A stretch of 40,004 nt of DNA. Source: a virus. Its lineage: Duplodnaviria; Heunggongvirae; Uroviricota; Caudoviricetes. A program made the translations under genes and the position numbers. Below, piece after piece: positions 7,459 to 26,944 of the stretch (within the stretch, counting starts at the first letter, position 1; the number at the start of each line of letters is the position of its first letter). Location: IMG/VR virus record IMGVR_UViG_2645727669_000017; one strand, written 5' to 3'. A model generated the notes under the pieces. The model saw nothing but the letters and a program-made list of their open reading frames with translations. It searched no databases and was not told where the DNA came from.

Positions 7459-7821
7459 TTAATGACCTGCTGCGCGGAGTTTTCCGTCAGGTTCACCGGC
7501 AAGAGTCAGTAATTGTCCCTGGTCTTCCTGCAGAATAGTCAGGCGACCACCGCGATTGACATACATCGGCGTTTCGGTGGTGTCTTCTTCGGAAATTTTC
7601 CCGCGGTTAGTCGGGCGAACATATGAGAGTTTGTGTTTGATTTTCACACGGTTCTCATCAAATGGTTCGATTTCCAGGTTGAGTGAGACCTTACCTTTGG
7701 TTTTCGTGTTCATCACACCTGAAGCGACTTCACTGAGAACTGCGCCGATTTTGGTTTCAAATACGCCGCCGTCCAGCTCCCCGATAAATGCCTGCACATC
7801 AGTACTGCGTTCGCTAGCCAT
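7459..7821 (-). CDS. yfdP: Hypothetical early protein (YfdP-like), first gene of the leftward early operon
   Basis: 120-aa product from internal ATG (MASERSTDV) preceded by GAGGAG RBS; the longer track ORF (to 8052) runs into a structured non-coding leader. Confidence 0.5.
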   Translation of the reverse strand: MASERSTDVQAFIGELDGGVFETKIGAVLSEVASGVMNTKTKGKVSLNLEIEPFDENRVKIKHKLSYVRPTNRGKISEEDTTETPMYVNRGGRLTILQEDQGQLLTLAGEPDGKLRAAGH

Positions 7822-7869
7822 TTTGCTGCTCCTCATCATATCGACCCTGCAAGGTCGGTTGGTTTCTCC

Positions 7870-7957
7870 ACAAAACAGAGAAGAACACCTGCGGTGGCAG
7901 CCGCCCGGGTGGATTGGGTTATGAGCCCGTCGTCCGGTGATGCTCTTCTCTGTTTTG
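7870..7957 (-). ncRNA. Long imperfect hairpin (15-bp arms) in the untranslated leader of the leftward early operon; candidate structured regulatory RNA
   Basis: ACAAAACAGAGAAGA (7870-7884) is the exact reverse complement of TCTTCTCTGTTTTGT (7943-7957); ~58-nt GC-rich interior with further complementarity. Confidence 0.35.
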
Positions 7958-8429
7958 TAAAAAGAGCGGTACCAGCCGGAAGCAAGTGTACAAACTGGTA
8001 CCGCCAAAGCAGTGGCTGTTGTGGTGGGCTTGTCACTTAAGCGTATGGTCAACCTGACAACCCGGTGTCCTCAACGGGGAAGGAATAACCCCGCCATACT
8101 TACCGCCGCGCCATTTCGCGGATTACCACAACGCTGAGAGCACTTAGCCAGTTACGGCACCACACTTTGTCGCGGTTCCATAAATGCCCTCATCGTTGCA
8201 CCCTGGTCTCTTCCCAGGCGTCAAACCGAATCGCCACGCTGGTTAGGCGTCTTATCAGCATCCTCATTGACTTGCACATTCCGGCTACCTGGTTTGTTTG
8301 CCCGAGCAAGGAGTGGATTGTCCCCTTTAACGTCCCCAGACCGCTAACGACGCATGTGCCATACGCCGTGTTACAACCAAATTTTGTTAGTACCTTGTTT
8401 GTAGGTCTGGAAAGAAAGATAAAATGAAG

Positions 8430-8468
8430 TTGCGCATTATGCAAGTGTTTTTATTGCGAGATATGCAA
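8430..8468 (-). promoter_or_regulatory. oL/pL-like region: two operators of form TTGC-N7-GCAA overlapping a leftward sigma70-like promoter
   Basis: TTGCGCATTATGCAA (8430-8444) and TTGCGAGATATGCAA (8454-8468); on the minus strand TTGCAT and CATAAT-like hexamers about 17 nt apart. Confidence 0.45.
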
Positions 8469-8524
8469 TTTGGTGGGTAATGAAAAGCCACCTTCTGGTG
8501 GCTAATTGATGTTGAGGTAGGGGG

Positions 8525-9217
8525 TTAATTGTGTCGCTTAAGGGTTTGTGACTGACTGATTAAGACCTTTCCAAAGACCATAAACCGATGTTCGTTTTCG
8601 CTGGTAATTCCCCATTCGCGGTAAATCTGATTATCAGAAATTACCAGCAGTTTATCAGGTATCATTTGCAGTCGTTTGACGTAAATTTTATCATCAAAAC
8701 CAAATACATATATACCATCCCCATCAAACTGATTGATACTGATATCAACGAAGATGAGATCTCCTGGCTCAATGGTTGGACACATACTGTCCCCACGAAC
8801 GTTGATAACTTTAATGTGATTTGCTGGTCGTCCACCAAACATCGATACAGCATTATCAGTTCTGTATTCAATGGCATGAATCACATCAATGACATCACCG
8901 CCCTGGATAAGGCCATTTCCCGCACTGGCACTGACATCCAGCATTTCAATACGGAATACATCCTTCACCTGCGCAACATCCTCACTAATACTGTTTTTAC
9001 ATACAGTATTACTTTTGAGGTCTGAGGTAAAGAGATCAGCAATATCAACACCTAAGCTCCTGGCAATATTACTCAGGGCTTGTTCAGTGAATTGTTTCTG
9101 CTTACCTGTTTCGAGGCGCGAGATATTCGCCGCATCCACTCCTATTGCTTCAGCGAGATCGGCGATTTTCATGTTCTTCGCCTGGCGAAGTTGTCTGACT
9201 CGATTTCCTATGTTCAT
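8525..9217 (-). CDS. CI-like prophage repressor (XRE HTH + S24 LexA-type autopeptidase domain)
   Basis: 230-aa ORF; N-terminal HTH (RVRQLRQAKNMKIADLAEAIGVDAANISRLETGK); C-terminal S24 signature (GDSMCPTI...KRL); divergent from the cro-like gene. Confidence 0.9.
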   Translation of the reverse strand: MNIGNRVRQLRQAKNMKIADLAEAIGVDAANISRLETGKQKQFTEQALSNIARSLGVDIADLFTSDLKSNTVCKNSISEDVAQVKDVFRIEMLDVSASAGNGLIQGGDVIDVIHAIEYRTDNAVSMFGGRPANHIKVINVRGDSMCPTIEPGDLIFVDISINQFDGDGIYVFGFDDKIYVKRLQMIPDKLLVISDNQIYREWGITSENEHRFMVFGKVLISQSQTLKRHN

Positions 9218-9237
9218 GCGTTTATTACATTTCTTTA

Positions 9238-9300
9238 TTGCGCGTTAAGCAAATCAACTTGCGCAAAATATTTGCGTGAAATAATATGCTCATCACGCAA
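9238..9300. promoter_or_regulatory. oR region with pR/pRM: operator TTGCGCGTTAAGCAA, palindrome TTGCGCAA and inverted repeat TTGCGTGA...TCACGCAA
   Basis: Same half-site (TTGC/GCAA) as the oL sites; putative pR -35 TTGCGC (9259-9264) and -10 TAATAT (9282-9287), 17-nt spacer, upstream of cro RBS GGAGG. Confidence 0.5.
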
Positions 9301-9314
9301 TATGTGGAGGTTAT

Positions 9315-9575
9315 ATGCAATCACCATTACGGAATGTGCGTAAGGCGCACGGATTTACTTTGCAGCATGTTGCTGCGGGCGTTCAGGTCAATCCAGCGAC
9401 GCTGAGTCGTATTGAAAGACTGGAACAAATTCCATCTATCGAGCTTGCAGAACGTCTGGCCAATTTTTTTAAGGGAGAAATCAGCGAAATGCAGATTCTC
9501 TATCCTGCACGCTTTCAATCTAGTCAAAACCGGAATGAGTTAAAACCACAGGAACAGGAGGTAAGCCGTGGGTAA
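9315..9575 (+). CDS. Cro-like HTH regulator
   Basis: 86-aa ORF with XRE-type HTH (FTLQHVAAGVQVNPATLSRIER); transcribed divergently from the repressor off the oR region. Confidence 0.75.
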   Translation: MQSPLRNVRKAHGFTLQHVAAGVQVNPATLSRIERLEQIPSIELAERLANFFKGEISEMQILYPARFQSSQNRNELKPQEQEVSRG

Positions 9576-10119
9576 GCATCACTGGAAAGTGGAAAAACAG
9601 CCTGAGTGGTACGTGAAAGCTGTCAGAAAAACTATCGCGGTGTTGCCGGGGGGTTACGCTGAAGCTGCTGAGTGGCTGGATGTAACAGAGAACGCTTTAT
9701 TCAACCGCCTTCGTGCCGATGGCGATCAGTTTTTTCCGTTGGGATGGGCAATGGTTTTACAGCGTGCGGCTGGTACTCACCACATTGCGGATGCTGTCGC
9801 ACAGTCTGCTGGTGGGGTGTTTGTATCACTTCCAGAAATTGAGGAAGTAGAGAACGCCGATATAAACCAGCGCCTGCTGGAAGTCATCGAACAGATCGGG
9901 AGTTACTCAAAGCAGATTCGTTCGGCAATCGAAGATGGGGTAGTGGAGCCACACGAGCAGACAGCAATTAATGATGAGTTGTATCTGTCAATTTCGAAGC
10001 TCCAGGAGCATGCAGCACTGGTCTACAAAATCTTCTGCGCTCCAGAAAAGAGTAACGCCCGCGAGTGTGCAGCTCCGGGCGTCGTGGCGTTTTGTGTCTG
10101 TGGAGAAACTAACGCATGA
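9568..10119 (+). CDS. CII-like / YdaT-like phage regulatory protein
   Basis: 183-aa ORF with GTG start immediately downstream of cro, overlapping it; assignment by position and size only. Confidence 0.45.
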   Translation: MGKHHWKVEKQPEWYVKAVRKTIAVLPGGYAEAAEWLDVTENALFNRLRADGDQFFPLGWAMVLQRAAGTHHIADAVAQSAGGVFVSLPEIEEVENADINQRLLEVIEQIGSYSKQIRSAIEDGVVEPHEQTAINDELYLSISKLQEHAALVYKIFCAPEKSNARECAAPGVVAFCVCGETNA

Positions 10120-10444
10120 ACAGTTTAACGGCAAATAACCGTTTGTCGCAACAGCTGGTGGTCAGTGTCGCTGCACACCTGTTGTTACGGCATGAATGCA
10201 GATTACCAAATCACCTGGCTGTAAGTAACCACAGAGAACTTTACCTGACTGTGGGGGGCGAGTTGTGCAGGAACTTAACCGCTGGTTTCGTGACGGAAGA
10301 GGACTTTATGTTCATGTTATTCGTTGGGAGCCAGAAACACAGCGCGTTATCTATCTTCGCAAAGACTACCCGCATGAGTGCTTTAGTCCTTTGTGGAAAT
10401 TCAGGCGTGATTTTGTTGAGTGTGAAGGACCACCAGCATATTGA
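10116..10444 (+). pseudogene. Small gene apparently split by a frameshift at a G6 tract (10253-10258)
   Basis: The frame from ATG 10116 (MNSLTANNRLSQQ...LYLTVGG) and a second open frame (RVVQELNRWFRDGRGLYVHVIRWEPETQRVIYLRKDYPHECFSPLWKFRRDFVECEGPPAY-stop at 10444) meet at GTGGGGGGCG; together ~108 aa. Confidence 0.3.
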
Positions 10445-10718
10445 TTCTGCAATTCCGGGACGTTACACTGTTCAGGCACCTTATAAAGCGGGTGCCGGGA
10501 TTGGCGTCCTGAAATTGTCAACGGCGATGTATGACGCGCCAGCGTCTTTTTTATCGTCCGCATTTGCTCACATCCAGATTATGGTGGGCTGGGCGGGGGC
10601 ACCGAAAGGTGCGCCGGTCTCCGTTGACGCCGGTTACGCCAACCCCGTCCAGTTCACCACCAGTGAAATTGGCGTTTCCGGTGGTGGAAGTTTTTCACTG
10701 TCAACGGAGGCTGCCATC

Positions 10719-11276
10719 ATGGCTACGATCCAAGCCCTCACTCAACCTGAAATCACCATTGACAACGGCCAGGCCGTTACCACTTCTTTGGCTGTTGCCA
10801 ACTTCTTCTCCAAGCGTCACGACGATGTGCTGAAAAAGATCCGCACTCTGGATTGTTCCCCTGAGTTTTGTGCCCGCAATTTTGCGGAGACATCGATTTC
10901 GGTAAATCAACCGAACGGTGGTACACGCAAGCTCCCTTGCTATCAAATCACACGAGACGGTTTTGCGTTTCTTGCTATGGGTTTCACGGGTAAACGTGCT
11001 GCCCGGTTCAAAGAGGCATACATCAATGCCTTTAACCAGATGGAAAAACTGCTTTCAAAGCCATCCACGCTGAGCGATGCCGCAGATAACGCCAGCGTGC
11101 TTTACTCCCACCTGTCGGTAATCCACAAGGTCTGGCTGCAGCAGCTTTATCCTATGTTGGCAAAAGCTGAATCTCCGCTGGCTGTTAGCTTATATGATTA
11201 TATTAATGATGCTTCGGCGCTGGCCTGCCTCATAAATTTGTCGCTGAACCCTTCAGAGGTAAGGGGGCGCAAATGA
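10719..11276 (+). CDS. Rha-family phage regulatory protein
   Basis: Conserved Rha-like N-terminus (ITIDNGQAVTTSLAVANFFSKRHDDVLKKIRTL) starts at internal ATG 10719 with GGAGG RBS; the 386-aa track ORF 10116..11276 is judged composite. Confidence 0.6.
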   Translation: MATIQALTQPEITIDNGQAVTTSLAVANFFSKRHDDVLKKIRTLDCSPEFCARNFAETSISVNQPNGGTRKLPCYQITRDGFAFLAMGFTGKRAARFKEAYINAFNQMEKLLSKPSTLSDAADNASVLYSHLSVIHKVWLQQLYPMLAKAESPLAVSLYDYINDASALACLINLSLNPSEVRGRK

Positions 11277-11497
11277 TCCGGAATATTTTCAAACGGTTTA
11301 CCAATCAGACTTTCCGTTGTCCTCGTCCGGGTCAGTGGTACACCACACCTGCAGGGCATGTTCTACGTGTTAGCCTGGTTGACCGTGAATGTCAGAAGGT
11401 GATTTGTGAACCGCTGGGCCGTAATTACCGCGTCAGTATGCCGCTTATAGCCTTTCGCTCCGGAAAAAACATGAAGCATCTCGGAGGTGCTGCATGA
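11273..11497 (+). CDS. Small hypothetical protein
   Basis: 74-aa ORF with ATGA overlap to the Rha stop and overlapping the next gene start. Confidence 0.35.
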   Translation: MIRNIFKRFTNQTFRCPRPGQWYTTPAGHVLRVSLVDRECQKVICEPLGRNYRVSMPLIAFRSGKNMKHLGGAA

Positions 11498-12312
11498 GTA
11501 TGGAGCTGATGGTTAAAGCGATGAAAATTCGAGTGGGTAATCCATTGCGAAAACTGGTTCTGATCAAGCTGGCTGATAATGCCAGCGATCAGGGGGAGTG
11601 CTGGCCCAGCTACCAGCATATTGCTGACCAGTGCGAGATTAGCAAACGTTCTGTGATGAATCATATTGCGGCCCTTTGTGAGTCCGGGCTGGTAAAAAAA
11701 GTCACCCGGAAAGGTGAAAAAGGTAACTCAAGTAATATCTATCTCCTTCATCTGGATGGTGCAGGAGATTCACTAGGGGGTAGTGCAAATAATTCACTAT
11801 CTGGCGCAGCAAATTCACCAGGTAGTGCAGGAGTTGCACCAGGGGGTAGTGCAGGAGATTCACCCAGAACCAGTCACTCTTTTGAACCAGTCAAAGAACC
11901 AGTCAATGAACCAATAGCTGTTGGTGCATCAGTTGATGAGTCTGTGCGAGTTCGTTCAAACCGACCGGAATACTCTCCGGAGTTTGAGCAGGCATGGCTG
12001 GCATATCCCAAACGTGCTGGTGGCAATTCAAAATCTGCAGCCTTCAAAGCCTGGAAAGCCCGTTTGAATGAGGGGGTAAACCCCGAAACCATGCTGGAAG
12101 GTGTGAAACGCTACGCGGGCTGGGTATCTGCGATGGGTAACAGCGGCACACAATTTGTGAAACAGGCTGTCACGTTCTTTGGTCCGGATCGTCATTTCGA
12201 AGAATCCTGGGAAGTTCCTGCGGTATCTGCAGCCAGACGTGAGGACCCGTACTTCAAAGCCAGTTACGACAACGTGGACTACAGCCAGATCCCGGCAGGA
12301 TTCAGGGGGTGA
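11494..12312 (+). CDS. Replication initiation protein (O-like, N-terminal winged HTH) with internal origin iterons
   Basis: 272-aa ORF; N-terminal HTH (SYQHIADQCEISKRSVMNHIAALCESGLVKK); Gly/Ser/Ala-rich repetitive linker encoded by direct DNA repeats; position after cro/cII. Confidence 0.65.
   Translation: MSMELMVKAMKIRVGNPLRKLVLIKLADNASDQGECWPSYQHIADQCEISKRSVMNHIAALCESGLVKKVTRKGEKGNSSNIYLLHLDGAGDSLGGSANNSLSGAANSPGSAGVAPGGSAGDSPRTSHSFEPVKEPVNEPIAVGASVDESVRVRSNRPEYSPEFEQAWLAYPKRAGGNSKSAAFKAWKARLNEGVNPETMLEGVKRYAGWVSAMGNSGTQFVKQAVTFFGPDRHFEESWEVPAVSAARREDPYFKASYDNVDYSQIPAGFRG
11759..11910. repeat. Iteron-like direct repeats inside the replication gene; candidate ori
   Basis: About four copies of GG(T/G)AGTGCAGGAG(A/T)T(T/G)CAC between 11759 and 11866, followed by three GAACCAGTC repeats (11866-11910). 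Confidence 0.5.
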
Positions 12313-12314
12313 TC

Positions 12315-12803
12315 ATGAGTCTTTTGAATGAAGTTCAGAAATACATTGAAGCCCATCCGGGGTGTACTTCCGGAGACATTGCGGATGCTTTTGCAGGTTA
12401 CTCACGGCAGCGCGTTCTGCAGTATGCAAGCAAGTTACGTCAGAGTGGGCGTGTGGCTCACCGTTGTGAAGGAGATACACGCAGACATTTCCCGCGCCTG
12501 ACTGAGAGAGCGCAGGAGCTGGAACCACAACCAGTTCGTGAAACCAGACCTGTGCGCAATTTCTATGTCGGCACTAACGACCCGCGGGTGATTTTGTGCC
12601 TGACCCGCCAGGCGGAAGAACTGGAGTCAAGGGGCTTATACCGTCGTGCTGCAACCGTGTGGATGGCGGCATTCCGTGAAAGCCACTCCCAGCCAGAACG
12701 AAACAATTTTCTGGCACGTCGTGAGCGGTGCTTACGGAAAAGCAGCAAGCGCGCTGCATCGGGTGAAGAGTGGTATCTGTCAGGGAATTACGTGGGGGCT
12801 TAA
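12315..12803 (+). CDS. PerC-family transcriptional regulator homologue with N-terminal winged-helix region
   Basis: PerC-like motif LESRGLYRRAATVWMAAF...RRERCLRK; ATG 12315 with AGGGGG RBS; TAATG overlap with the next gene. Confidence 0.5.
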   Translation: MSLLNEVQKYIEAHPGCTSGDIADAFAGYSRQRVLQYASKLRQSGRVAHRCEGDTRRHFPRLTERAQELEPQPVRETRPVRNFYVGTNDPRVILCLTRQAEELESRGLYRRAATVWMAAFRESHSQPERNNFLARRERCLRKSSKRAASGEEWYLSGNYVGA

Positions 12804-13456
12804 TGAGTAATAAATATTGCCGGGCGCTGGTGGAACTGCGGAACAAACCAGCCCATGAACTGAAGGAAGTGGGCGATCAGTGGCGCACGCCGGATAACAT
12901 TTTCTGGGGAATTAACACCCTGTTTGGCCCGTTTGTCCTGGATCTGTTTACTGACGGTGATAACGCCAAATGTACCGCGTATTACACGGCGGAAGACAAC
13001 GCGCTGGCGCATGACTGGTCAGAACGTCTTGCGGAGCTTAAAGGTGCTGCCTTTGGTAATCCCCCATACAGCCGCGCCAGTCAGCATGAGGGGCAATACA
13101 TCACCGGCATGCGTTACATCATGAAACATGCCAGTGCCATGCGTGATAAAGGCGGGCGCTATGTTTTCCTGATCAAAGCTGCCACCTGCGAAGTGTGGTG
13201 GCCGGAAGATGCAGATCATATTGCTTTTATTCGCGGGCGTATTGGTTTTGAACTGCCTGCCTGGTTTATCCCGAAAGATGAGAAGCAGGTGCCGACAGGC
13301 GCTTTCTTCGCTGGTGCTATTGCTGTTTTCGACAAGACCTGGAAGGGACCGGCAATCAGCTACATCGGGCGCGATGAACTTGAGGCATGTGGTGAGGCGT
13401 TTCTGGCGCAGGTTCGCCAGCAGGCAGAAAAACTGGTCAGGGAGATGGCGGCATGA
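12803..13456 (+). CDS. Phage DNA N6-adenine methyltransferase (Dam-like)
   Basis: NPPY catalytic motif (GNPPYS) within a ~217-aa product; start from TAATG overlap at 12803. Confidence 0.8.
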   Translation: MSNKYCRALVELRNKPAHELKEVGDQWRTPDNIFWGINTLFGPFVLDLFTDGDNAKCTAYYTAEDNALAHDWSERLAELKGAAFGNPPYSRASQHEGQYITGMRYIMKHASAMRDKGGRYVFLIKAATCEVWWPEDADHIAFIRGRIGFELPAWFIPKDEKQVPTGAFFAGAIAVFDKTWKGPAISYIGRDELEACGEAFLAQVRQQAEKLVREMAA

Positions 13457-13779
13457 CGACGTTAACTCAATGCCAGCAGCAGGTGCTGGATATGCTGATT
13501 TCTTATCAGAAAGAACGTGGCTTCCCGCCAACCAATCAGGAGGTGGCAACCATGCTGGGATACCGTTCAGTGAATGCAGCGGTGGAGCATCTTCGCGCAC
13601 TGGAGAAAAAAGGCGTCATCACGATAAAGCGTGGCGTGGCCCGGGGGATCACGCTTCATACCGCGGTGAAGGACGACGACAGCGAGGCGGTCGGGATTAT
13701 CCGCTCACTGCTTGCCGGTGAGGAAAACGCAAGGCTGCGTGCAACCCACTGGTTACATGAGAGAGGCTTGAAAGCATGA
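13453..13779 (+). CDS. LexA-like DNA-binding-domain protein lacking the S24 protease domain
   Basis: 108-aa ORF; N-terminus (LTQCQQQVLDMLISYQKERGFPPTNQEVATMLGYRSVNAAVEHLRALEKKGVI) parallels the LexA N-terminal winged HTH; no Ser/Lys dyad domain. Confidence 0.6.
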   Translation: MTTLTQCQQQVLDMLISYQKERGFPPTNQEVATMLGYRSVNAAVEHLRALEKKGVITIKRGVARGITLHTAVKDDDSEAVGIIRSLLAGEENARLRATHWLHERGLKA

Positions 13780-14165
13780 AGCTGATCCTGCCTTTTCCGC
13801 CCAGCGTGAACACGTACTGGCGACACCCCAACAAAGGGGCGTTTGCTGGTAAGAGCCTGATAAGCTCGGCGGGGCGAAAATTCCAGAGCGCGGCGTGCGC
13901 AGCAATAGTTGAGCAGTTACGTCGTCTGCCGAAACCAACGTCGGCACCTGCTTCAGTGGAGATCGTGTTGTTTCCTCCGGATAACCGGATCCGCGATCTG
14001 GACAACTATAACAAGGCGCTGTTTGACGCCCTGACCCATGCGGGTGTGTGGGAAGACGACAGTCAGGTGAAAAGAATGCTGGTGGAGTGGGGACCGGTTA
14101 TCCCGAAAGGGAAGGTCGAGATCACTATCAGTAAGTACGAGAAAACGGCGGGTGCAGCCGCCTGA
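13776..14165 (+). CDS. rusA: RusA Holliday junction resolvase
   Basis: 129-aa ORF with RusA-like LPFPPSVNTYWRH and DLDNYNKALFDALT motifs. Confidence 0.85.
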   Translation: MKLILPFPPSVNTYWRHPNKGAFAGKSLISSAGRKFQSAACAAIVEQLRRLPKPTSAPASVEIVLFPPDNRIRDLDNYNKALFDALTHAGVWEDDSQVKRMLVEWGPVIPKGKVEITISKYEKTAGAAA

Positions 14166-14184
14166 TCAAGAGGAGAAACGAAGT

Positions 14185-14994
14185 ATGAATAATCTGATGG
14201 TCATTGATGGTATTGAAGTTCGTCGTGATGCTTATGGGCGTTACAGCCTGAACGATCTGCATCGCGCAGCAGTAGCATCTGGTGCAAATGCCAGAACCAA
14301 GGAGCCGGGAAAGTTTCTTTCCAGCCAACAAACTGTTGAGCTTGTTCATGAATTGACCAACACCCAGAATTTGGGTGTTGACCCGGTGAGTGTGATTCAT
14401 GGGGGAAATGAACGGGGAACGTATGTCTGCAAGGAACTGGTGTATGCCTATGCAATGTGGATCAGCCCGTCATTCCATCTGAAGGTGATCCGTACTTTCG
14501 ATATGGTAACCAGCGCACCGGAAAAATTATCCGGACAGGCTGCTGACAAGATGCAGGCTGGCGTGATCCTGCTGGACTTTATGCGCCGGGAGTTAAACCT
14601 GTCTAACTCTTCAGTGCTTGGTGCCTGTCAGAAACTCCAGGAGGCTGTTGGCTTACCGAATCTGGCACCGCGCTATGCCATTGATGCTCCTGCTGATGCA
14701 CACGATGGCTCAAGTCGCCCGACACTGTCACTGAGTGCACTGCTGAAACAGTATGGTATACGCCTGACGGCTAATCAGGCATATCACCAGATGGTGAAAC
14801 TGGGGATCGTCGAGCAGCGCGAACGATACAGCCGTACCGCGATTAACAACATCAAAAAATTCTGGTCGCTGACAGCGAAAGGCTGCATGTTCGGCAAGAA
14901 CATCACCAGTCCCGCAAATCCGCGCGAGACGCAGCCGCATTTCTTCGAATCCCGATTCTCTGAGCTGTTAAAGCTGCTCGATACCGTTCATTGA
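14185..14994 (+). CDS. KilA-N domain protein
   Basis: N-terminal KilA-N signature (VIHGGNERGTYVCKELVYAYAMWISPSFHLKVIRTF); internal ATG 14185 preceded by AAGAGGAG RBS. Confidence 0.7.
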   Translation: MNNLMVIDGIEVRRDAYGRYSLNDLHRAAVASGANARTKEPGKFLSSQQTVELVHELTNTQNLGVDPVSVIHGGNERGTYVCKELVYAYAMWISPSFHLKVIRTFDMVTSAPEKLSGQAADKMQAGVILLDFMRRELNLSNSSVLGACQKLQEAVGLPNLAPRYAIDAPADAHDGSSRPTLSLSALLKQYGIRLTANQAYHQMVKLGIVEQRERYSRTAINNIKKFWSLTAKGCMFGKNITSPANPRETQPHFFESRFSELLKLLDTVH

Positions 14995-14995
14995 G

Positions 14996-15991
14996 GTGAC
15001 CGTGAGAGCACTACTGACCCCTGAAATTGCCCCGCGTATGGGGATCGTATTGTTCAGGCCAGGTTCAGAGCTGATGCCCCTGTTTATGCAGGGGCGTGTC
15101 CTGCTGGAGCCTGAGCCGGAGCGTTATTCATCTTTCGCCAGTGGTGCCGTTCCGGCGGCATCACAACCGCTGGCGGATGATCCTGCCGTTCGGGCCGTGT
15201 TCCGCAATGAGGCAGTGATCCGTCGTGCTGGTGGCGTGGAATGTCTTGAAAGCTGGTTACTTCGTGAAAAAGGCTGCCAGTGGCCTCATTCCGACTGGCA
15301 CAGCGAGAACATGACCACAATGCGACACGCTCCGGGTGCAATCCGTCTGTGCTGGCACTGCGATAACCAGCTGCGCGATCAGTTCACGGAACGGCTGGAA
15401 TCAATGGCAACGGATAACTGTGCCCGCTGGGTGTTGTCTGTTGTGCGTCGGGATCTCGGTTTTGATGACAGTCACGTTGTGACAATGCCGGAACTGTGCT
15501 GGTGGCTGATTCGTAATGATCTGGCGGATGCCTTACCGGAAAGTGCAGCCCGTAAGGCACTGAGATTACCGAAGCCTGTTGTGCCGTCTGTTACCCGGGA
15601 AAGTGACCTTGTGCCTTCGGTTCCTGCCACCAGCATCATCCAGGATAAGGCGAAAAAGGTGCTGGCGCTGAAAGTGGATCCGGAGTCGCCGGAGTCTTTT
15701 ATGTTACGCCCAAAACGTCGCCGCTGGGTTAATGAAAAGTACACGCGCTGGGTTAAGACACAGCCGTGTGCATGTTGTGGAAAGCCCGCTGATGATCCCC
15801 ACCACCTGATAGGTCACGGTCAGGGTGGAATGGGAACAAAAGCGCATGACCTTTTTGTGTTGCCTTTGTGCAGAAAGCATCACGACGAGCTGCATGCGGA
15901 TACCGTGGCATTTGAAGAGAAGTATGGCTCCCAGCTGGAGCTGATATTTCGTTTTATCGATCGTGCGCTGGCAATTGGCGTGCTGGCCTGA
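14996..15991 (+). CDS. DUF968-like prophage protein with C-terminal HNH-type zinc-finger nuclease motif
   Basis: 331-aa ORF (GTG start); C-terminal [13 protein letters not shown]...HHDELH typical of HNH/DUF968 proteins of lambdoid nin regions. Confidence 0.6.
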
Positions 15992-16008
15992 TTTTGTGGA
16001 GAAAGTTG

Positions 16009-16374
16009 ATGCGTGATATTCAAATGGTTCTTGAACGTTGGGGGGCATGGGTGGCAAATAATCACGAGGATGTCACCTGGTCGTCTATTGCTGCAGGATT
16101 TAAAGGACTAATCCCTTCAAAAGTAAAATCCCGCCCGCAATGTTGTGACGATGACGCGATGATCATTTGTGGATGCATGGCTCGCCTGAAAAAGAACAAC
16201 AGCGATTTGCACGATTTATTAGTGGATTATTATGTAGGTGGTATGACTTTTATGGCGCTTGCCCGTAAACATGGGCGTTCTGATTGCTGGGTTGGGCGTT
16301 TATTGCAAAAGGCTGAAGGTGTAGTTGATGGCATGTTAATGATGTTAGAAATTGAGCTAGAGATGGATCGTTAG
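16009..16374 (+). CDS. Late-gene antiterminator Q (short Q family)
   Basis: ~121-aa product from internal ATG ([14 protein letters not shown]...) with Cys-rich zinc-binding core ([16 protein letters not shown]); last gene before the late region. Confidence 0.65.
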
Positions 16375-16385
16375 AAGACCTCTTA

Positions 16386-16414
16386 TTGAGGGGGTAATTG
16401 AATCAGTTTAATGT
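16386..16414 (+). promoter_or_regulatory. Candidate late promoter pR'
   Basis: TTGAGG (16386-16391), 17-nt spacer, TAATGT (16409-16414), immediately downstream of the Q stop. Confidence 0.3.
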
Positions 16415-16415
16415 G

Positions 16416-16446
16416 TGGGGAGTCGATTTATTCTCCCCATTTTATT
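16416..16446 (+). terminator. Rho-independent terminator (candidate tR') just downstream of the putative late promoter
   Basis: TGGGGAG (16416-16422), 10-nt loop, CTCCCCA (16433-16439), then a T-rich run. Confidence 0.5.
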
Positions 16447-16454
16447 TAATTTAT

Positions 16455-16901
16455 TTAAGGTTTTAATTCATCAAGACGTTGTTGGATAGTGTTTTTGCTT
16501 GCGTTGTCTGTTATAGACATTTGTTGTACTTGCCCCATTGCCATTTGAGTTTCCATCCACATATCGGCCCACACTTTTGTATCGTTATTAACTTGAGCGA
16601 TAGTAAATCTGACTTTTGATACCGGGGTTGTTGAATAGGCATTGCCGATTAACATTTGTCCAAAAACAGCAGAGCCGCCTTCCAGTTCTTTACCACATAT
16701 AACACTGCTGTTATCCGCGTTGTAAATTATCAACCCTCTACTATTGCAGTAATTCACAAGGGCATCTTTGACTTTATCTTTTGTCGTATTTTGATAAACC
16801 CCCTCAGGTTTTCCTGATTGAGTTTTCTTTATCAATGGTACGGAAGAAGTACAACCTGAAATGATAGTTGCGCTAAGTAATAGTACAGTCATTTTATTCA
16901 T
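16455..16901 (-). CDS. Lipoprotein moron of unknown function, antisense to late transcription between Q and the lysis genes
   Basis: 148-aa ORF with lipoprotein signal peptide and lipobox (LLLSATIISGC); AT-rich; opposite orientation to flanking genes. Confidence 0.6.
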   Translation of the reverse strand: MNKMTVLLLSATIISGCTSSVPLIKKTQSGKPEGVYQNTTKDKVKDALVNYCNSRGLIIYNADNSSVICGKELEGGSAVFGQMLIGNAYSTTPVSKVRFTIAQVNNDTKVWADMWMETQMAMGQVQQMSITDNASKNTIQQRLDELKP

Positions 16902-17147
16902 GTTTCTTATCCATTGTTAAGGGCATACCCACACAATTATTTTTATTGGAGATGAATAATCAACCGTTTACAATCGTAAAAAATCAAATATGCTGTTAAG
17001 AGTGGTTACTTCGCCACACAACTTAAACCCGCCGCTGAGCGGTTTTTTTGTACCTGTAAACCTGGTGCAGTACAGTAAACACGCTGGTGGTCGTGAATAC
17101 TGACTTTTTATCTTGCTGGCTTTTTAGACAAGAGTTATTGGTATGTC

Positions 17148-17375
17148 ATGTTAACCAGAAGGGAAAAAGACATGCTAAAACAGCAAGATATGACAGAAAC
17201 CGCCGCCGCAGTCCTTCATTTCTTACCTGCTGACAAGTGGGTAACGCCACGCATGATGACGAGAACTACCGGAGTAAGCGAAGCCCGGTGCCAGTTAATA
17301 CTGACTCAGTTAGTTCTGGCGGGTCTGGCGAAGGATAACGGCGGGTACGGGAATAAATTCAGACGCTGCCAGTAA
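17148..17375 (+). CDS. Small putative winged-helix DNA-binding protein
   Basis: 75-aa ORF upstream of the methyltransferase; function unknown. Confidence 0.35.
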   Translation: MLTRREKDMLKQQDMTETAAAVLHFLPADKWVTPRMMTRTTGVSEARCQLILTQLVLAGLAKDNGGYGNKFRRCQ

Positions 17376-17525
17376 TGGCGGTTTCCTGCTGTGAAAATGG
17401 GCGGCTGGTGGGTGTTGGTAGCACCTGCCAGCCATTCGCTCATGCTTACTGGTCACAAGCGAACCACGGCCCACTGCTTTAGCGCAAAAGCAGAGTGAGC
17501 CTACCAGAGTTACGCTTACTGATCC

Positions 17526-18578
17526 ATGAAAAATACTGTAAAAATAAACAGTGTTGATTTAATCAACGCTGATTGCCTGCATTTTATTCAGTCCCTGCCT
17601 GATGATTCCATTGACCTGATTGTTACCGATCCGCCGTACTTCAAGGTGAAACCCAACGGCTGGGACAATCAGTGGAAAGGGGACGAAGATTACCTTAAGT
17701 GGCTGGACCACTGTCTGGCCCAGTTCTGGCGGGTGTTAAAACCTGCCGGAAGCCTTTACCTGTTCTGTGGGCATCGCCTGGCATCTGATATTGAGATCAT
17801 GATGCGTGAACGTTTCAACGTGCTTAACCATATCATCTGGGCGAAGCCGTCCGGACGTTGGAATGGGTGTAATAAAGAAAGTCTGCGTGCATATTTTCCA
17901 GCCACAGAGCGCGTTCTGTTTGCTGAACATTACCAGGGGCCATATCGCGGCAAAAGTGACGGCTATGCGGCAAAAGAAAGGGAACTCAAACAGCACATAA
18001 TGGCACCGCTGATTTCGTATTTCAGGGATGCTCGTGCCGAACTGGGTATAACGGCAAAACAAATTGCCGAAGCCACAGGTAAGAAAAATATGGTTTCCCA
18101 CTGGTTTGGTGCCAGTCAGTGGCAGTTGCCGAATGAGGCTGACTATCGGAAGTTACAGGCACTGTTTTCCCGTATAGCGGCAGAGAAGTTTCAGGAACAA
18201 CAACTGGAACAACCACACCACCAGCTGGTGGCATCTTATGATTCACTGAATCGCAAATATTCTGAATTGCTGGATGAGTTTAAATCTCTCCGGCGCTATT
18301 TCTCCGTATCAGTCTCCGTGCCTTATACCGATGTCTGGATGCATAAACCCGTTCAGTTCTACCCGGGTAAACATCCGTGTGAGAAACCTGCGGATATGCT
18401 CCGGCAAATAATCAATGCCAGTAGTCGACCTGGTGATCTGGTTGCTGATTTTTTTATGGGATCCGGTTCCACAATAAAAGCAGCAATGGCGCTGGGGCGT
18501 CGGGCCTTAGGTGTTGAGCTTGAGTCAGAGCGGTTTAACCAGACAGTGAAAGAGATAAACGAGCTGGTGGGGAAATAA
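17526..18578 (+). CDS. Orphan N6-adenine/N4-cytosine DNA methyltransferase
   Basis: 350-aa ORF with DPPY catalytic motif (IVTDPPYF) near the N-terminus and a C-terminal AdoMet-binding region (DFFMGSGST); no adjacent restriction enzyme. Confidence 0.85.
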   Translation: MKNTVKINSVDLINADCLHFIQSLPDDSIDLIVTDPPYFKVKPNGWDNQWKGDEDYLKWLDHCLAQFWRVLKPAGSLYLFCGHRLASDIEIMMRERFNVLNHIIWAKPSGRWNGCNKESLRAYFPATERVLFAEHYQGPYRGKSDGYAAKERELKQHIMAPLISYFRDARAELGITAKQIAEATGKKNMVSHWFGASQWQLPNEADYRKLQALFSRIAAEKFQEQQLEQPHHQLVASYDSLNRKYSELLDEFKSLRRYFSVSVSVPYTDVWMHKPVQFYPGKHPCEKPADMLRQIINASSRPGDLVADFFMGSGSTIKAAMALGRRALGVELESERFNQTVKEINELVGK

Positions 18579-18584
18579 TCTGGT

Positions 18585-18606
18585 GGCCACGTAGGTGGCC
18601 TTTTTA
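18585..18606 (+). terminator. Hairpin plus T-run between the methyltransferase and the holin
   Basis: GGCCAC (18585-18590), loop GTAG, GTGGCC (18595-18600), then TTTTT. Confidence 0.4.
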
Positions 18607-18644
18607 TTTCCATTACACAGCACCCGCATCTGCGAGGTGGGGTT

Positions 18645-18860
18645 ATGAAATCCATGGATAAGTTAACAACGGGTGTCGCCTATGGCACCTCAGCAGGTAG
18701 TGCCGGGTACTGGTTTTTACAGTTGCTCGATAAAGTCACGCCCTCACAGTGGGCGGCAATAGGTGTGCTGGGTAGTCTGGTATTTGGCTTGCTGACGTAT
18801 CTGACAAACCTTTATTTCAAGATTAAAGAAGATAAGCGTAAGGCTGCGAGAGGTGAATAA
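18645..18860 (+). CDS. Class II holin (phage 21 S-type pinholin) with dual start
   Basis: 71-aa ORF; two TM segments; MKSMDK dual-start arrangement (ATG 18645 and 18654); strong resemblance to the S21 holin. Confidence 0.85.
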
Positions 18861-19357
18861 TGTCGCCATCATTACGCAAGGCTGTTGCTGCTGCTATTGG
18901 TGGTGGGGCTGTTGCCATAGCGTCTGTGCTCATCACTGGTCCGAGTGGTGACGATGGCCTGGAAGGTGTCAGCTACATACCATACAAAGATATCGTTGGC
19001 GTATGGACTGTATGCCACGGACACACCGGAAAAGACATCATGCTAGGTAAAACGTATACCGAAGCAGAATGCAAAGCCCTCCTGAATAAAGACCTTGCCA
19101 CGGTCGCCAGACAAATTAACCCGTACATCAAAGTCGATATACCGGAAACAACGCGCGGCGCTCTTTACTCGTTCGTCTACAACGTGGGTGCTGGCAATTT
19201 CAGAACATCGACGCTTCTTCGCAAAATAAACCAGGGCGATATCAAAGGCGCATGTGACCAGCTACGTCGCTGGACATACGCTGGCGGTAAGCAATGGAAA
19301 GGCCTGATGACTCGTCGTGAGATTGAGCGTGAAGTCTGTTTGTGGGGGCAACAATGA
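18860..19357 (+). CDS. SAR endolysin (lysozyme with N-terminal signal-anchor-release domain)
   Basis: 165-aa ORF; Gly/Ala-rich weakly hydrophobic N-terminus ([20 protein letters not shown]) followed by a lysozyme-like domain; pairs with the pinholin. Confidence 0.85.
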
Positions 19358-19821
19358 GCAGAGTAACCGCGATTATCTCCGCTCTGGTTATCTGCATCAT
19401 CGTCTGCCTGTCGTGGGCGGTCAATCATTACCGTGATAACGCCATCGCCTACAAAGAACAGCGTGATAAAAAAGTCAGTGAGCTGAAGCAGGCGACCGCC
19501 ACCATCGCTGACATGCAGCAGCGTCAGCGTGATGTTGCTGCGATCGATGCAAAATACACGAAGGAGTTAGCCGATGCGAAAACTGAAAATGAAACTCTGC
19601 GCGCTGATGTTGCCGCTGGTCGTAAGCGCCTGCGGGTCAATGCCAGTTGCTCCGCAGCCGTGCGTGAAGCCACCGGACCCACCAGCATGGATAATGCAAC
19701 CAGCCCCCGACTGGCAGACACCGCTGAACGGGATTATTTCACCCTCAGAGAACGGTTGATGACGATGCAGAAGCAACTGGAAGGGGCGCAGGAATATATC
19801 CGCACCCAGCGCATTAAGTAG
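19354..19821 (+). CDS. rz: Rz i-spanin
   Basis: N-terminal TM segment then coiled coil; ATGA overlap with the endolysin stop; contains the embedded Rz1 frame. Confidence 0.8.
19574..19759 (+). CDS. rz1: Rz1 o-spanin lipoprotein, embedded in the +1 frame of Rz
   Basis: 61-aa ORF wholly inside Rz; lipobox LVVSAC; proline-rich mature region. Confidence 0.8.
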
Positions 19822-19842
19822 CTGGAGAAAAAACACGAATCT

Positions 19843-20205
19843 GTGGTTTTTACTGAGCGCGGTGTACACGGTGGAACATATGGCGGGAAGTTTGTTGCTT
19901 ATGATTATGCAGCATGGCTAAACCCCGGATTTAAATATGCAGCCTATAAAGTCCTGGATGACTACTTCACCGGAGAACTTCAGCATCGCAACAGCTTAAG
20001 TGCGCAGCTCAATATGAAGTGTCATGAGTTTGATCAGAAAAAAGATATGGTGAGCTTCTGTGGACAAGGGCTGGCGGCATGGCGCTATACGAAGCCAGTG
20101 TTGGTCGCTGAGATTAACTCCCTGGCTAACCAGCTGCAGATAACGATCCCCGGGCTGTCCGGTATTTGCCGGTATGAAATTACCGGAAGGCGCGGTCGTT
20201 ACTGA
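19843..20205 (+). pseudogene. Remnant carrying only the C-terminal half of a KilA-N domain
   Basis: Begins at GTG with GVHGGTYGGKFVAYDYAAWLNPGFKYAAYKV (C-terminal half of the KilA-N signature); sits directly after the Rz stop in the same frame. Confidence 0.35.
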
Positions 20206-24972: not shown

Positions 24973-26944
24973 TTCCTGGTTCAGGATGCAGGCTGGTCAC
25001 CAGAGTGACGCGGATATTTATATTTATGACGAGATTGGTTTCTGGGGTGTTACAGCGAAGCAGTTTATCAGTGATCTGAATGCACTGGGCGATATCACCC
25101 ACATTAATCTCCATATTAATTCACCGGGTGGCGATGTCTTTGAAGGCATCGCCATTTTTAATGCGCTGAAAACACATGGTGCGTCCATTACCGTTTATGT
25201 CGACGGTGTGGCGGCGTCAATGGCGTCGGTCATTGCGATGGTAGGAAACCCGGTCATTATGCCGGAAAACACCTTCATGATGATTCATAAACCATTTGGC
25301 TTTACGGGCGGTGATGCGGAGGACATGCGCACCTATGCCGACCTGCTCGATAAAGTTGAGGCGGTTCTGTTACCCGCTTATGCACAGAAAACCGGGAAAA
25401 CCACCGATGAAATTGCTGCCATGCTGGCGGATGAGACCTGGATGTCCGGTGCCGAATGTCTGGCACATGGATTTGCTGATCAGGTAACGCCAGCCGTTAA
25501 GGCAATGGCATGTATTCAGTCAAAACGTACAGAGGAATTTAAAAAGATGCCGGAATCCATTCGAAACATGATTACTCCGCCACGCAACAGTGCTCCACGC
25601 GTACAGGATAATGAACCTGAAGCCTCCCGGACGCCAGTGCAGGCAGCAGCACCCGTGGTGGATGAAAACAGCATCCGTGCGCAGGTACTGGCAGAGCAAA
25701 AAGCGCGTGTAAACGGTATTAATGATCTGTTTGCCATGTTTGGCGGGCGTTATCAGACGCTGCAGGCTCAGTGTCTTGCCGATCCTGAATGTTCGCTGGA
25801 GCAGGCCCGCGAAAAGCTGTTGAACGAGATGGGGCGCGAGTCCACGCCATCCAATAAAAATACCCCGGCTCATATTTATGCCGGTAACGGTAATTTTGTG
25901 GGGGACGGGATCCGCCAGGCGCTGATGGCGCGTGCCGGATTTGAAAAAACCGAACGTGATAATGTCTACAACGGGATGACCCTGCGTGAATATGCCCGTA
26001 TGTCACTGACTGAACGGGGTATTGGGGTTTCCAGTTATAACCCGATGCAGATGGTCGGTGCGGCGTTCACACACAGTACGTCTGACTTCGGTAATATTCT
26101 GCTGGATGTTGCGAACAAAGCCATTCTGCAGGGCTGGGAAGATGCCCCTGAAACCTATGAACAGTGGACGCGGAAAGGTCAGTTGTCTGATTTTAAAATT
26201 GCCCATCGTGTGGGTATGGGGGGCTTCAGTGCTCTGCGTCAGGTGCGTGAAGGGGCGGAATATAAATACGTCACCACCGGAGATAAACAGGCCACTATTG
26301 CACTGGCGACCTATGGCGAGCTGTTCAGTATCACCCGTCAGGCCATTATCAATGATGATCTGAATATGCTGACCGATGTCCCGATGAAACTGGGCCGTGC
26401 GGCGAAATCCACTATTGCCGATCTGGTTTATGCCATTCTGACGTCTAACCCGAAAATCTCCACAGATAATGTAAGTCTGTTCGATAAAGCGAAACATGCA
26501 AACGTACTGGAGAGCGCTGCAATGGACGTGGCATCGCTGGATAAAGCCCGCCAGTTGATGCGCGTTCAGAAAGAGGGGGAGCGTCATCTGAATATTCGTC
26601 CTGCGTTCGTACTGGTACCGACGGCGATGGAGTCTGTTGCTAACCAGGTCATTCGCTCCTCAAGTGTCAAGGGGGCTGACATTAACGCCGGTATTATTAA
26701 CCCGGTGAAAGATTTTGCGACCGTTATTGCAGAGCCTCGTCTTGATGATAACAGCCAGACCACCTTCTACCTGGCTGCGTCAAAAGGCTCCGATACGATT
26801 GAAGTGGCTTATCTCAACGGTGTGGATACGCCATATATTGATCAGATGGAGGGCTTCAGTGTGGATGGCGTGACAACGAAAGTGCGTATTGACGCCGGTG
26901 TCGCGCCAGTTGATCACCGCGGTCTGGTGAAATGTACGGCGTAA
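24917..26944 (+). CDS. Prohead protease (ClpP/S49-like) fused to major capsid protein
   Basis: Single ORF with N-terminal ClpP-like domain (INSPGGDVFEGIAIFNAL...SMASVIAM), a linker and a C-terminal capsid domain; start taken as GTG 24917 with AAGGAGG RBS (alternative ATG 24986). Confidence 0.85.
   Translation: MPQRNDRSRSTPTTSPKINSWFRMQAGHQSDADIYIYDEIGFWGVTAKQFISDLNALGDITHINLHINSPGGDVFEGIAIFNALKTHGASITVYVDGVAASMASVIAMVGNPVIMPENTFMMIHKPFGFTGGDAEDMRTYADLLDKVEAVLLPAYAQKTGKTTDEIAAMLADETWMSGAECLAHGFADQVTPAVKAMACIQSKRTEEFKKMPESIRNMITPPRNSAPRVQDNEPEASRTPVQAAAPVVDENSIRAQVLAEQKARVNGINDLFAMFGGRYQTLQAQCLADPECSLEQAREKLLNEMGRESTPSNKNTPAHIYAGNGNFVGDGIRQALMARAGFEKTERDNVYNGMTLREYARMSLTERGIGVSSYNPMQMVGAAFTHSTSDFGNILLDVANKAILQGWEDAPETYEQWTRKGQLSDFKIAHRVGMGGFSALRQVREGAEYKYVTTGDKQATIALATYGELFSITRQAIINDDLNMLTDVPMKLGRAAKSTIADLVYAILTSNPKISTDNVSLFDKAKHANVLESAAMDVASLDKARQLMRVQKEGERHLNIRPAFVLVPTAMESVANQVIRSSSVKGADINAGIINPVKDFATVIAEPRLDDNSQTTFYLAASKGSDTIEVAYLNGVDTPYIDQMEGFSVDGVTTKVRIDAGVAPVDHRGLVKCTA

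Follow-up and report, generated by a model that had tools for sequence, protein, structure and literature searches.

The early-left leader of a lambdoid prophage is a mosaic of conserved structured RNA modules with a probable dicF-type organization

The window analysed here, a stretch of 40,004 nucleotides (nt) of a lambdoid prophage of the Caudoviricetes (IMG/VR record IMGVR_UViG_2645727669_000017), carries a 608-nt leader (7822-8429, read on the minus strand) between two operator-like 15-mers and the first early-left gene. Our analyses suggest that this leader is the untranslated 5' part of the transcript from the left promoter pL and that it probably works as a dicF-type polycistronic precursor of structured and small RNAs with an attenuator. 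The preliminary description, made from the sequence alone, had presented it as one highly structured element built around a long hairpin. The high degree of structure stands (z = -3.9 for the 608-nt fold) but the single element does not, the leader being composed of at least five separable modules of which the hairpin is the last. We name them, in the leftward direction, module A, stalk S1, module B, module C and module D.

The mosaic nature of the leader is apparent from its distribution. In distant blastn comparisons with phage genomes the query splits into segments of differing distribution: 7822-8026 matches SfV, SfII and Stx2c phages, 8010-8132 matches Qin-like phages (mEp460 and others) as well as an Actinobacillus phage, 8126-8369 matches phiV10-like podoviruses, and 8205-8382 matches P1 as well as P7. 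The distributions of modules A and B are independent (A only in 94 loci, B only in 104, both in 33). The 567-nt whole is 98% conserved across phages of differing immunity region, such as cdtI, Ayreon and Stx2c phages, and E. coli strains that produce Shiga toxin or belong to O111 have chromosomal prophages with a 100% identical leader; strains E2855 and RM9322 show full identity over the 608 nt. Among 5,426 complete E. coli genomes, 1,030, about a fifth, hold the full leader and 4,786 hold parts of it, with no annotation under it. In P1 and in the phiV10 group the matching segments adjoin transfer RNA (tRNA) genes, on the strand equivalent to the minus strand of the window, and G-U pairs that are invariant or frequent can form on the minus strand only (U-G pairs 23-33 of helix H1 in 22 of 22 sequences, 92-102 of module B in 21 of 21 and 1-118 of module D in 12 of 12). 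From these G-U pairs and from the strand of the adjacent tRNA genes we infer that the functional molecule is the leftward, pL-sense RNA. One could imagine that an interval of this kind, with sharp junctions between segments matching different phage groups, is a functionless scar of mosaic recombination or an element acting at the level of DNA (protein-binding sites, a single-strand origin), yet we hold this to be very improbable, since each module is conserved well past its flanks and across genera (84.5% to the Actinobacillus phage, for example) and since compensatory changes together with the strand-specific G-U pairs indicate selection on the minus-strand RNA fold.

The leader is non-coding, as the preliminary description had proposed on the grounds that it saw neither a convincing open reading frame (ORF) nor an arginine-rich N-like frame. 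Barring the TTG-extended frame of the downstream gene, the ORFs that overlap 7822-8429 do not exceed 86 amino acids (aa), and a Pfam search with them returned no match. An N homologue was not found by PHROG or Pfam among the early-left or interval ORFs, which is weak evidence given that N proteins are highly divergent; nor did a search of the interval for a conserved protein-coding gene, the outcome that had been named as contrary to an RNA element, find one. We give next to no credence to a small protein encoded here, such as a diverged N using a non-canonical start. Its supporters could point to ORFs of 66-86 aa on both strands, to hypothetical proteins called at this place by database annotators and to the only PHROG matches, phrog_33599 and phrog_3651 (both of "unknown function"), given by two short ORFs over hairpin D (7836-8040, both strands); these two families, however, were most likely built from spurious gene calls on non-coding RNA, cdtI orf40 being an example. 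Against protein coding, which we reject, speak the lack of Pfam matches, the interruption of all six frames by stops in 6 of 22 module-A and 10 of 21 module-B sequences (the window's own included), and alignment gaps that are mostly not multiples of three among the relatives. No frame remains open throughout the relatives of modules A and B, sequence variation tracks base pairing and not codons, and SfV orf33, which occupies the equivalent position and was considered as N-like, was discarded as it is not arginine-rich.

Module B (8018-8132, minus strand) ties the leader to dicF. Its sequence, taken as 8132-8010 on the minus strand, is 92.7% identical over 123 nt to the Qin sequence directly upstream of dicF in E. 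coli K-12, which makes it a homologue of the 5' part of the 190-nt DicF precursor. Qin homology and covariation define a four-way junction with a closing stem (8132-8125 / 8025-8018) and three arms (arm 1, 8121-8106; arm 2, 8105-8063; arm 3, 8063-8026). Across 21 diverse sequences 94.8% of the cells are paired and 10 pairs show changes in both partners, where shuffles give 4.4 +/- 1.4 and slid controls no more than 3, and a candidate loop-loop contact, GUAUGG/CCAUAC, turns into GCAUGG/CCAUGC in the P1 type, so that a U-A pair becomes C-G. The profile made from the 21 sequences recovers the window copy, and at least 120 module-B loci came to light when viral contigs were scanned for a conserved 23-mer. 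For modules A and B, RNAalifold run on automatic alignments under-predicted the structure because their variable hairpins misalign, and we therefore defined the helices by hand and then counted. The four-way junction resembles a tRNA in outline only: ARAGORN found no tRNA or transfer-messenger RNA (tmRNA) in the window, the Rfam tRNA and tmRNA models gave no match at E <= 10 over 7700-8560, and this candidate identity was rejected. A CCA-type RNase P signal after closing stems was likewise dropped as unsupported.

Directly after module B, in the slot of DicF, lies module C (7957-8017, minus strand), which looks like the 3' unit of a small RNA and has the anatomy of an intrinsic terminator. It consists of a linker, AGCCACUGCUUU (8017-8006), a hairpin of 10 perfect pairs plus a G-U (8005-7965; inverted repeat I4, 10/10 complementary) and a U-tract (7963-7959), and it folds at -22.5 kcal/mol (z = -2.3); a consensus terminator scan missed the hairpin, the loop of which is too long for that scan. 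The succession of U-rich stretch, hairpin and U-tail is present (CUUUGGCGGUACCAG...CUGGUACCGCUCUUUUU), and module C and DicF have UUUGGCGGUAYCAGUUU in common. Downstream of module B we collected 42 variants from more than 120 phage contigs, among which canonical DicF forms the majority beside the window type, the P1 type, the Actinobacillus type and others; all of them show a variable stretch and, except L059, a hairpin with a U-run after it. The preliminary description had offered a regulatory leader or a small RNA among its possible functions, and a domain homologous to the region upstream of dicF, followed by a variable stretch and an intrinsic terminator, agrees well with this.

Two features of the DicF slot and its surroundings deserve mention in their own right. 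A stretch UGCUGUGUGUAGUC(C/U)U, where the window has AGCCACUGCUUU instead, occupies the slot in SfV (L006, 2150-2340, minus strand) and in L044, L059, L138, L157, L160 and L187, strongly conserved in front of terminator hairpins of several kinds, as would be expected of the seed of an undescribed prophage small-RNA family. Furthermore, the apical loops of many variable hairpins hold UCCUU or CUCCUU, resembling the anti-Shine-Dalgarno end of 16S ribosomal RNA, for instance the apical loop of helix H2 in module A (~8300-8310), arm 2 of module B (~8080-8088) and C-type hairpins in relatives.

Module D (7870-7958, minus strand) is the hairpin to which the preliminary description had drawn attention, and it comprises a stem of 21-25 base pairs (bp) closing a three-way junction, a sub-hairpin with the conserved GGGCUCAUAACCC (7937-7905) and a variable sub-hairpin (7904-7891). 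The long hairpin was recovered with 25-nt arms that are 84% complementary (7870-7894 / 7934-7958), both GC-rich sub-stems are present, and the perfect 15-bp arms exist as well, one base away from where they had been placed, at 7870-7884 / 7944-7958. The hairpin folds at -49.2 kcal/mol, as compared with -25.9 +/- 3.3 for shuffled sequences (z = -7.1), none of 200 being as good. In contrast with the lack of conservation that would have spoken against it, relatives retain the hairpin through compensatory changes: over 12 variants 93.4% of the cells are paired, and 8 pairs are altered on both sides versus 3.0 +/- 1.2 in shuffles and at most 2 in slid controls. Module D always comes after the terminator U-tract, and its 29 sequence variants stand ahead of at least 7 different downstream gene starts. 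It is followed (7842-7869, minus strand) by a conserved GGAGAAAC(C/U)AAC and then a small variable hairpin (7857-7842); GGAGAAAC is kept in all but one module-D variant, while the small hairpin varies in sequence and retains its pairing. The U-tract of module C has GGAGA as its partner in the minimum-energy fold.

The comparison with Qin gives a possible meaning to module D and to the stalk S1 (8129-8198, minus strand), a long-range stem of 16-18 bp (8198-8183 with 8145-8129) around a variable insert. In Qin the 190-nt DicF species is RNase III-dependent and is converted by RNase E to the 53-nt DicF (PMC10448788), and RNase III also makes the 3' end of a 72-nt DicF (PMC9438474). The Qin duplex homologous to S1 (-35.5 kcal/mol) contains in its 3' strand the calculated 5' end of the 190-nt species, and a 21-bp stem located at the same place as module D, between dicF and dicB (z = -5.0), receives the 3' end of the 72-nt DicF (PMC9438474) in its 5' arm; the Qin dicF unit is thus flanked by an S1-type duplex upstream and a 21-bp stem downstream, both at RNase III-dependent ends. 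By analogy, S1 is a probable RNase III site, and module D may be regarded as the positional and structural counterpart of a known one. Both duplexes, to be compared with the roughly two turns of nearly perfect pairing expected of an RNase III stem, are maintained by compensatory changes over their 16-18 and 21-25 pairs, S1 doing so in 35 distinct versions, 32 of which have inserts of 44-205 nt, and RNase III cutting at either of them is here a prediction only: the dicF-type processing itself is known from Qin (PMC10448788, PMC9438474), and in the window we see the corresponding duplexes alone. A pairing of the S1 insert with the 5' arm of module C, as an antiterminator, was considered and dropped, the insert being identical in phiV10, which has no module C.

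Taken as loci, the window and Qin share their place in a lambdoid early operon and a homologous structured domain (B), behind which come a brief single-stranded stretch and a terminator hairpin. They differ in that the window is without the 53-nt DicF, has another loop, carries module A upstream and another stem (D) downstream, and continues into a yfdP-like gene instead of dicB. None of the papers that we retrieved describes module A, a structured element at domain B, the S1/cassette layout or module D. Modules B and C are a new variant of the dicF-type locus, whereas module A, the S1/cassette layout and module D are apparently undescribed and absent from Rfam. Indeed, Rfam 15, searched over 7700-8560 both at gathering threshold and at E <= 10, has no real family match in the interval, its sole hit being a spurious hairpin-ribozyme match (17.5 bits, E = 1.4). 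The P1/P7 C4 and P4 CI RNAs are comparable in that they too are phage regulatory RNAs cut from the leader of an early operon; a C4-family RNA is present in the rightward operon of the window, and the P1 ban operon carries modules B and A. Neither C4 nor CI, however, is related by sequence or by model to modules A-D.

Accordingly arranged, the leader would work as follows. Transcription from about 8409 would produce module A first, then S1, B, and the linker and terminator hairpin of C, where a share of the transcripts would end and give a non-coding RNA of about 450 nt. RNase III would cut S1, and also D on those transcripts that read through, releasing a B-C RNA of about 170 nt, the presumed counterpart of the 190-nt DicF species; in this scheme the RNase III and RNase E steps are borrowed from Qin. 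It is tempting to propose that the B-C RNA acts by base pairing through its linker and pyrimidine-rich loop, its U-rich stretch, hairpin and U-tail being features typical of Hfq-binding small RNAs. The transcripts passing C would continue into the yfdP-like gene and the remaining early-left operon, with the cut in D setting the 5' end of the messenger RNA (mRNA).

Several points weigh against this proposal. The Rfam DicF model RF00039 (gathering threshold, 48 bits) does not match module C at gathering threshold, nor at E <= 10 on 861 or 121 nt, although Qin and mEp460, used as positive controls, each score 76.7 bits. The 5' seed of DicF (UUUCUGGUGAC, UUUCUGGUGACG) is deleted from module C in the alignment with Qin, and the duplex of module C with the start of ftsZ is no better than those of shuffles (0.88 at least as good) in a test that is crude, ignoring intramolecular structure. 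Because the seed is lost, RF00039 fails and ftsZ pairing is at chance level, we rejected module C as DicF and regard it as a variant of the locus. Module D and the Qin stem are alike in position and shape, and their sequences are unrelated. The single-sequence folds of modules A and B are no better than shuffles (z ~ -1), so that covariation is what supports their structure. The promoter, the transcript ends and the cleavages are all predicted for this phage, and the targets of the C unit, like its activity in trans, are hypothetical. Finally, module A is found also without B, in the 94 loci mentioned above, and in short operons, so that it may be a mistake to assign one role to the leader as a whole.

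Module A ("A-core"; 8189-8374, minus strand) indeed requires a discussion of its own. Delimited by covariance model R1 and by covariation, it is a structured RNA of about 185 nt with the helices H1 (8368-8348), H2 (8342-8336 with 8292-8286), H4 (8244-8224) and H5 (8218-8202, with an invariant loop GAAGAGA); further invariant blocks between the helices are GGUAGCCGGAAUGUGCAAG and the loop CGUGGCGAU. A contact GCACAU/AUGUGC within module A is proposed in addition. In 22 diverse sequences 94.2% of the cells of these four helices are paired, and 9 pairs, amounting to 41 cells, are altered on both sides against 5.6 pairs and 12.6 cells in shuffles, slid controls reaching at most 4 pairs. Model R1 finds the sole copy of the window at 154 bits (E = 6e-46) and one copy in P1, and none in HK022, Qin or SfV; no Rfam family matches module A at E <= 10. 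It occurs in at least 120 viral contigs; P1 carries it between trnI and ban, and phiV10/SPN1S-like phages have it upstream of a tRNA-Arg. A 16-mer scan of genome contigs gave mostly chance matches in unrelated phyla, 14 of 120 passing the module-A profile, and the true copies in reference genomes all belong, where the record title was read, to Enterobacteriaceae of several genera. Upstream of module A, 68 of 120 loci have the end of a co-oriented cI/DicA-like repressor gene, mostly about 85-220 nt away, which leaves room for operators and promoter only and makes module A the first element transcribed from pL. Our best guess is that module A is a cis-acting leader that aids RNA polymerase, or the transcript, through a long untranslated stretch containing a terminator. 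The idea that the H4 loop touches tRNA 3' ends in the manner of a T-box was dropped as unsupported.

Some isolated observations concern the copies of module A. L149 (3992-4961, minus strand) has two of them in tandem on one strand, about 640 nt apart, the sole case among 127 loci. In P1 (L005, ~26200-26260), between module A and ban, UUUUCUGGUGAUGAC stands just before the ribosome-binding site of ban; it is nearly the 5' seed of DicF (UUUCUGGUGACG), without the DicF hairpin.

The position of module A raises the question of antitermination. For the region with the long hairpin, the preliminary description had considered an RNA-based antitermination element of the put type of HK022, an assignment that fails on size, fold, similarity and copy number. 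The put RNA is about 70 nt long with two stem-loops (PMC9378689), as opposed to about 185 nt, at least four covarying helices and additional variable hairpins in the pL-proximal module A. Comparison of the leader with the pL-nun and cro-cII regions of HK022 by blastn-short gave chance matches of at most 12 nt only, and model R1, run on HK022 with filters off, reached 8.2 bits at best, on a terminator hairpin that is neither putL nor putR. The window, its rightward operon included, has no second copy of any leader module; with filters off, model R1 gave nothing above 4.8 bits over 8400-20000, and among the 127 loci the only one with two module-A copies has them in tandem on the same strand. What the leader and put have in common is a non-coding RNA right after pL of a lambdoid phage in which N is undetected, this last resemblance being a weak one in view of the divergence of N, and they differ in that module A also occurs in non-lambdoid contexts and has no putR-like copy. 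An N/nut system is not apparent either, no N-like ORF and no conserved boxA having been found. The boxA-like CGCUCUUUUUAC in the terminator tail (7967-7956) was rejected, relatives having CGCCC, CGACC or CGUCC there, and of 115 contexts of module A only one has a canonical boxA behind it; this is L196, where about 110 nt past module A a small hairpin precedes UGCUCUUUAACAA, a perfect rrn-type boxA. Between the H5 loop GAAGAGA and the loop of the lambda nutL boxB, GAAGA, there is no more than a resemblance. The lambda pL leader is similar in its long untranslated stretch between pL and the first gene and in its RNase III-type long hairpin shortly before a ribosome-binding site, and differs in that the window has neither an N gene nor a conserved boxA.

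The putL position of module A is nonetheless compatible with a put-like function, and the reading built on it supposes that module A, or A with B, is a cis-acting processive antiterminator RNA analogous to put that replaces N/nut, binding the transcribing polymerase so that it passes terminator C, later terminators and Rho. We find this doubtful. In its favour are the presence of a Q-like late antiterminator where an N homologue is undetected, the intrinsic terminator between pL and the first gene, the transcription of module A first after pL in 68 of 120 loci and its location at the putL site in loci with HK022-like operators (L158, L165), and others have remarked that lambdoid phages without N may use put-like RNAs (PMC12315714). 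It has to face the difference in size and fold from put (PMC9378689), the lack of putL/putR similarity by sequence as well as by covariance model, and the absence of a second copy from the rightward operon in the window and in every locus. Moreover, in phiV10-like phages module A heads a unit of about 1 kb (promoter, tRNA-Arg, ORF) in which processive antitermination would hardly be needed, and in P1 it lies downstream of the terminator that trails module B. An improbable alternative makes module A an abundant immediate-early RNA acting in trans by titrating a host or phage protein, such as a nuclease, a defence protein, Hfq/ProQ or RNA polymerase, the remaining leader being merely its carrier. 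Invariant single-stranded blocks and loops (GGUAGCCGGAAUGUGCAAG, GAAGAGA, CGUGGCGAU) beside covarying stems, the independent mobility of module A among lambdoid pL operons, the P1 ban operon and phiV10-like tRNA units, and its true copies in several genera of Enterobacteriaceae speak for such an RNA; yet no partner protein co-occurs with module A, the contexts being different, and invariant loops could equally be explained by tertiary contacts or by contacts in cis with the polymerase.

The lambda N leader has an RNase III hairpin that influences N translation, and one might argue that the interval is likewise only a long 5' untranslated region (UTR) controlling the translation and stability of the first gene, giving no separate RNAs. 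D, GGAGAAAC and the small hairpin immediately precede the Shine-Dalgarno sequence and accompany differing downstream genes, in keeping with this view, to which we assign a small probability. It would account for D at most, however, since A, S1 and B are found elsewhere without D or a yfdP-like gene, module B is always trailed by a terminator-type 3' unit, and the homologous Qin region does give discrete RNAs. A dicF-type precursor with an attenuator is thus the reading that we retain for the leader as a whole. For module A itself we would suggest, as a speculative extension, that it founds an undescribed class of phage leader RNAs acting directly on the host machinery, either by rendering RNA polymerase resistant to termination and Rho without a phage protein, through a fold unrelated to put and larger, or by titrating a host factor. 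If true, this class would explain early-left expression in many N-less lambdoid prophages of Enterobacteriaceae, and the GUUGUGG...CCACAAC units behind module A (B, tRNA-Arg, "E" and "F") would be exchangeable small-RNA cassettes.

Each of these units begins with GUUGUGG and ends with CCACAAC, enclosing module B, a genuine tRNA-Arg or some other structured insert. The tRNA-Arg stands in place of module B in phiV10-like phages, and its first bases, GUGGCAUU, resemble those of module B, GUGGUAAU. The layout recalls that of 3'-trailer small RNAs (3'ETS-leuZ and other 3'-end-derived Hfq small RNAs), with a structured cloverleaf-like unit, a short trailer and the operon terminator, except that module B is not a tRNA. 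Another stem-closed unit, which we call the E type (GUGGUGAAUGCG...CACCACA(AC)), is seen in Qin (L009, 1957-2075) within the dicF-dicB stem, in SfV (L006, ~2200-2330) before the C-type hairpin, and in other phages (L142, L223) directly after A and S1; it is interchangeable with module B and tRNA-Arg.

In a wider context, DicF is one variant of a larger family that combines a four-way-junction domain with interchangeable seed-plus-terminator units and is common to lambdoid prophages, P1 and an Actinobacillus phage. Module A, which has no match in Rfam, is another RNA of conserved structure and sits exactly at the nutL/putL position of classical phages, and how lambdoid phages without N pass their early terminators becomes a question that can be addressed experimentally. 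The leader is very common in E. coli and yet unannotated, and new prophage small RNAs are predicted in Shiga-toxin-producing strains.

The surroundings of the leader are those of a lambdoid prophage, with an integrase gene (386-1609), a cI-like repressor gene (8525-9217, minus strand), cro-like and cII-like genes to its right and a gene for the Q-like late antiterminator (15994-16374). The two operator-like 15-mers, TTGCGCATTATGCAA and TTGCGAGATATGCAA, 24 bp apart (8430-8468; direct-repeat family D1), lie between the leader and the cI-like gene with its terminator hairpin and are, by their position, candidates for the left operator oL. That hairpin (8486-8503) immediately follows the cI-like gene; it is GC-rich, has 7 bp and a minus-strand U-run, and likely terminates the repressor transcript just upstream of the operators. 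As read from the sequence, pL is probably located at 8416-8444 (minus strand; -35 TTGCAT at 8444-8439, a spacer of 17 nt and -10 TATCTT at 8421-8416), with a predicted transcription start at about 8409; it was not picked up by a consensus promoter scan of the window, and the same TATCTT lies 8-10 nt ahead of module A in the related loci L140 and L164. At the other end, a Shine-Dalgarno sequence GAGGAG (7834-7829) and an ATG (7821-7819) introduce the first early-left ORF (7459-7821, minus strand), which is outside the leader and encodes a YfdP-like protein of 120 aa (phrog_204, E = 1e-49) with homologues in cdtI (orf39), SfV (orf32) and ST64B (sb37). In the rightward operon, on the plus strand, an isrK-family RNA (10476-10552, 62 bits) directly precedes the C4 antisense RNA (10577-10664, 81 bits), and the region 10476-10664 looks like an immI-type (c4-icd-ant) module of P1/P7. 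Both RNAs fall within a listed ORF of 386 aa (10116-11276), the 5' part of which is probably non-coding and the C-terminal part antirepressor-like.

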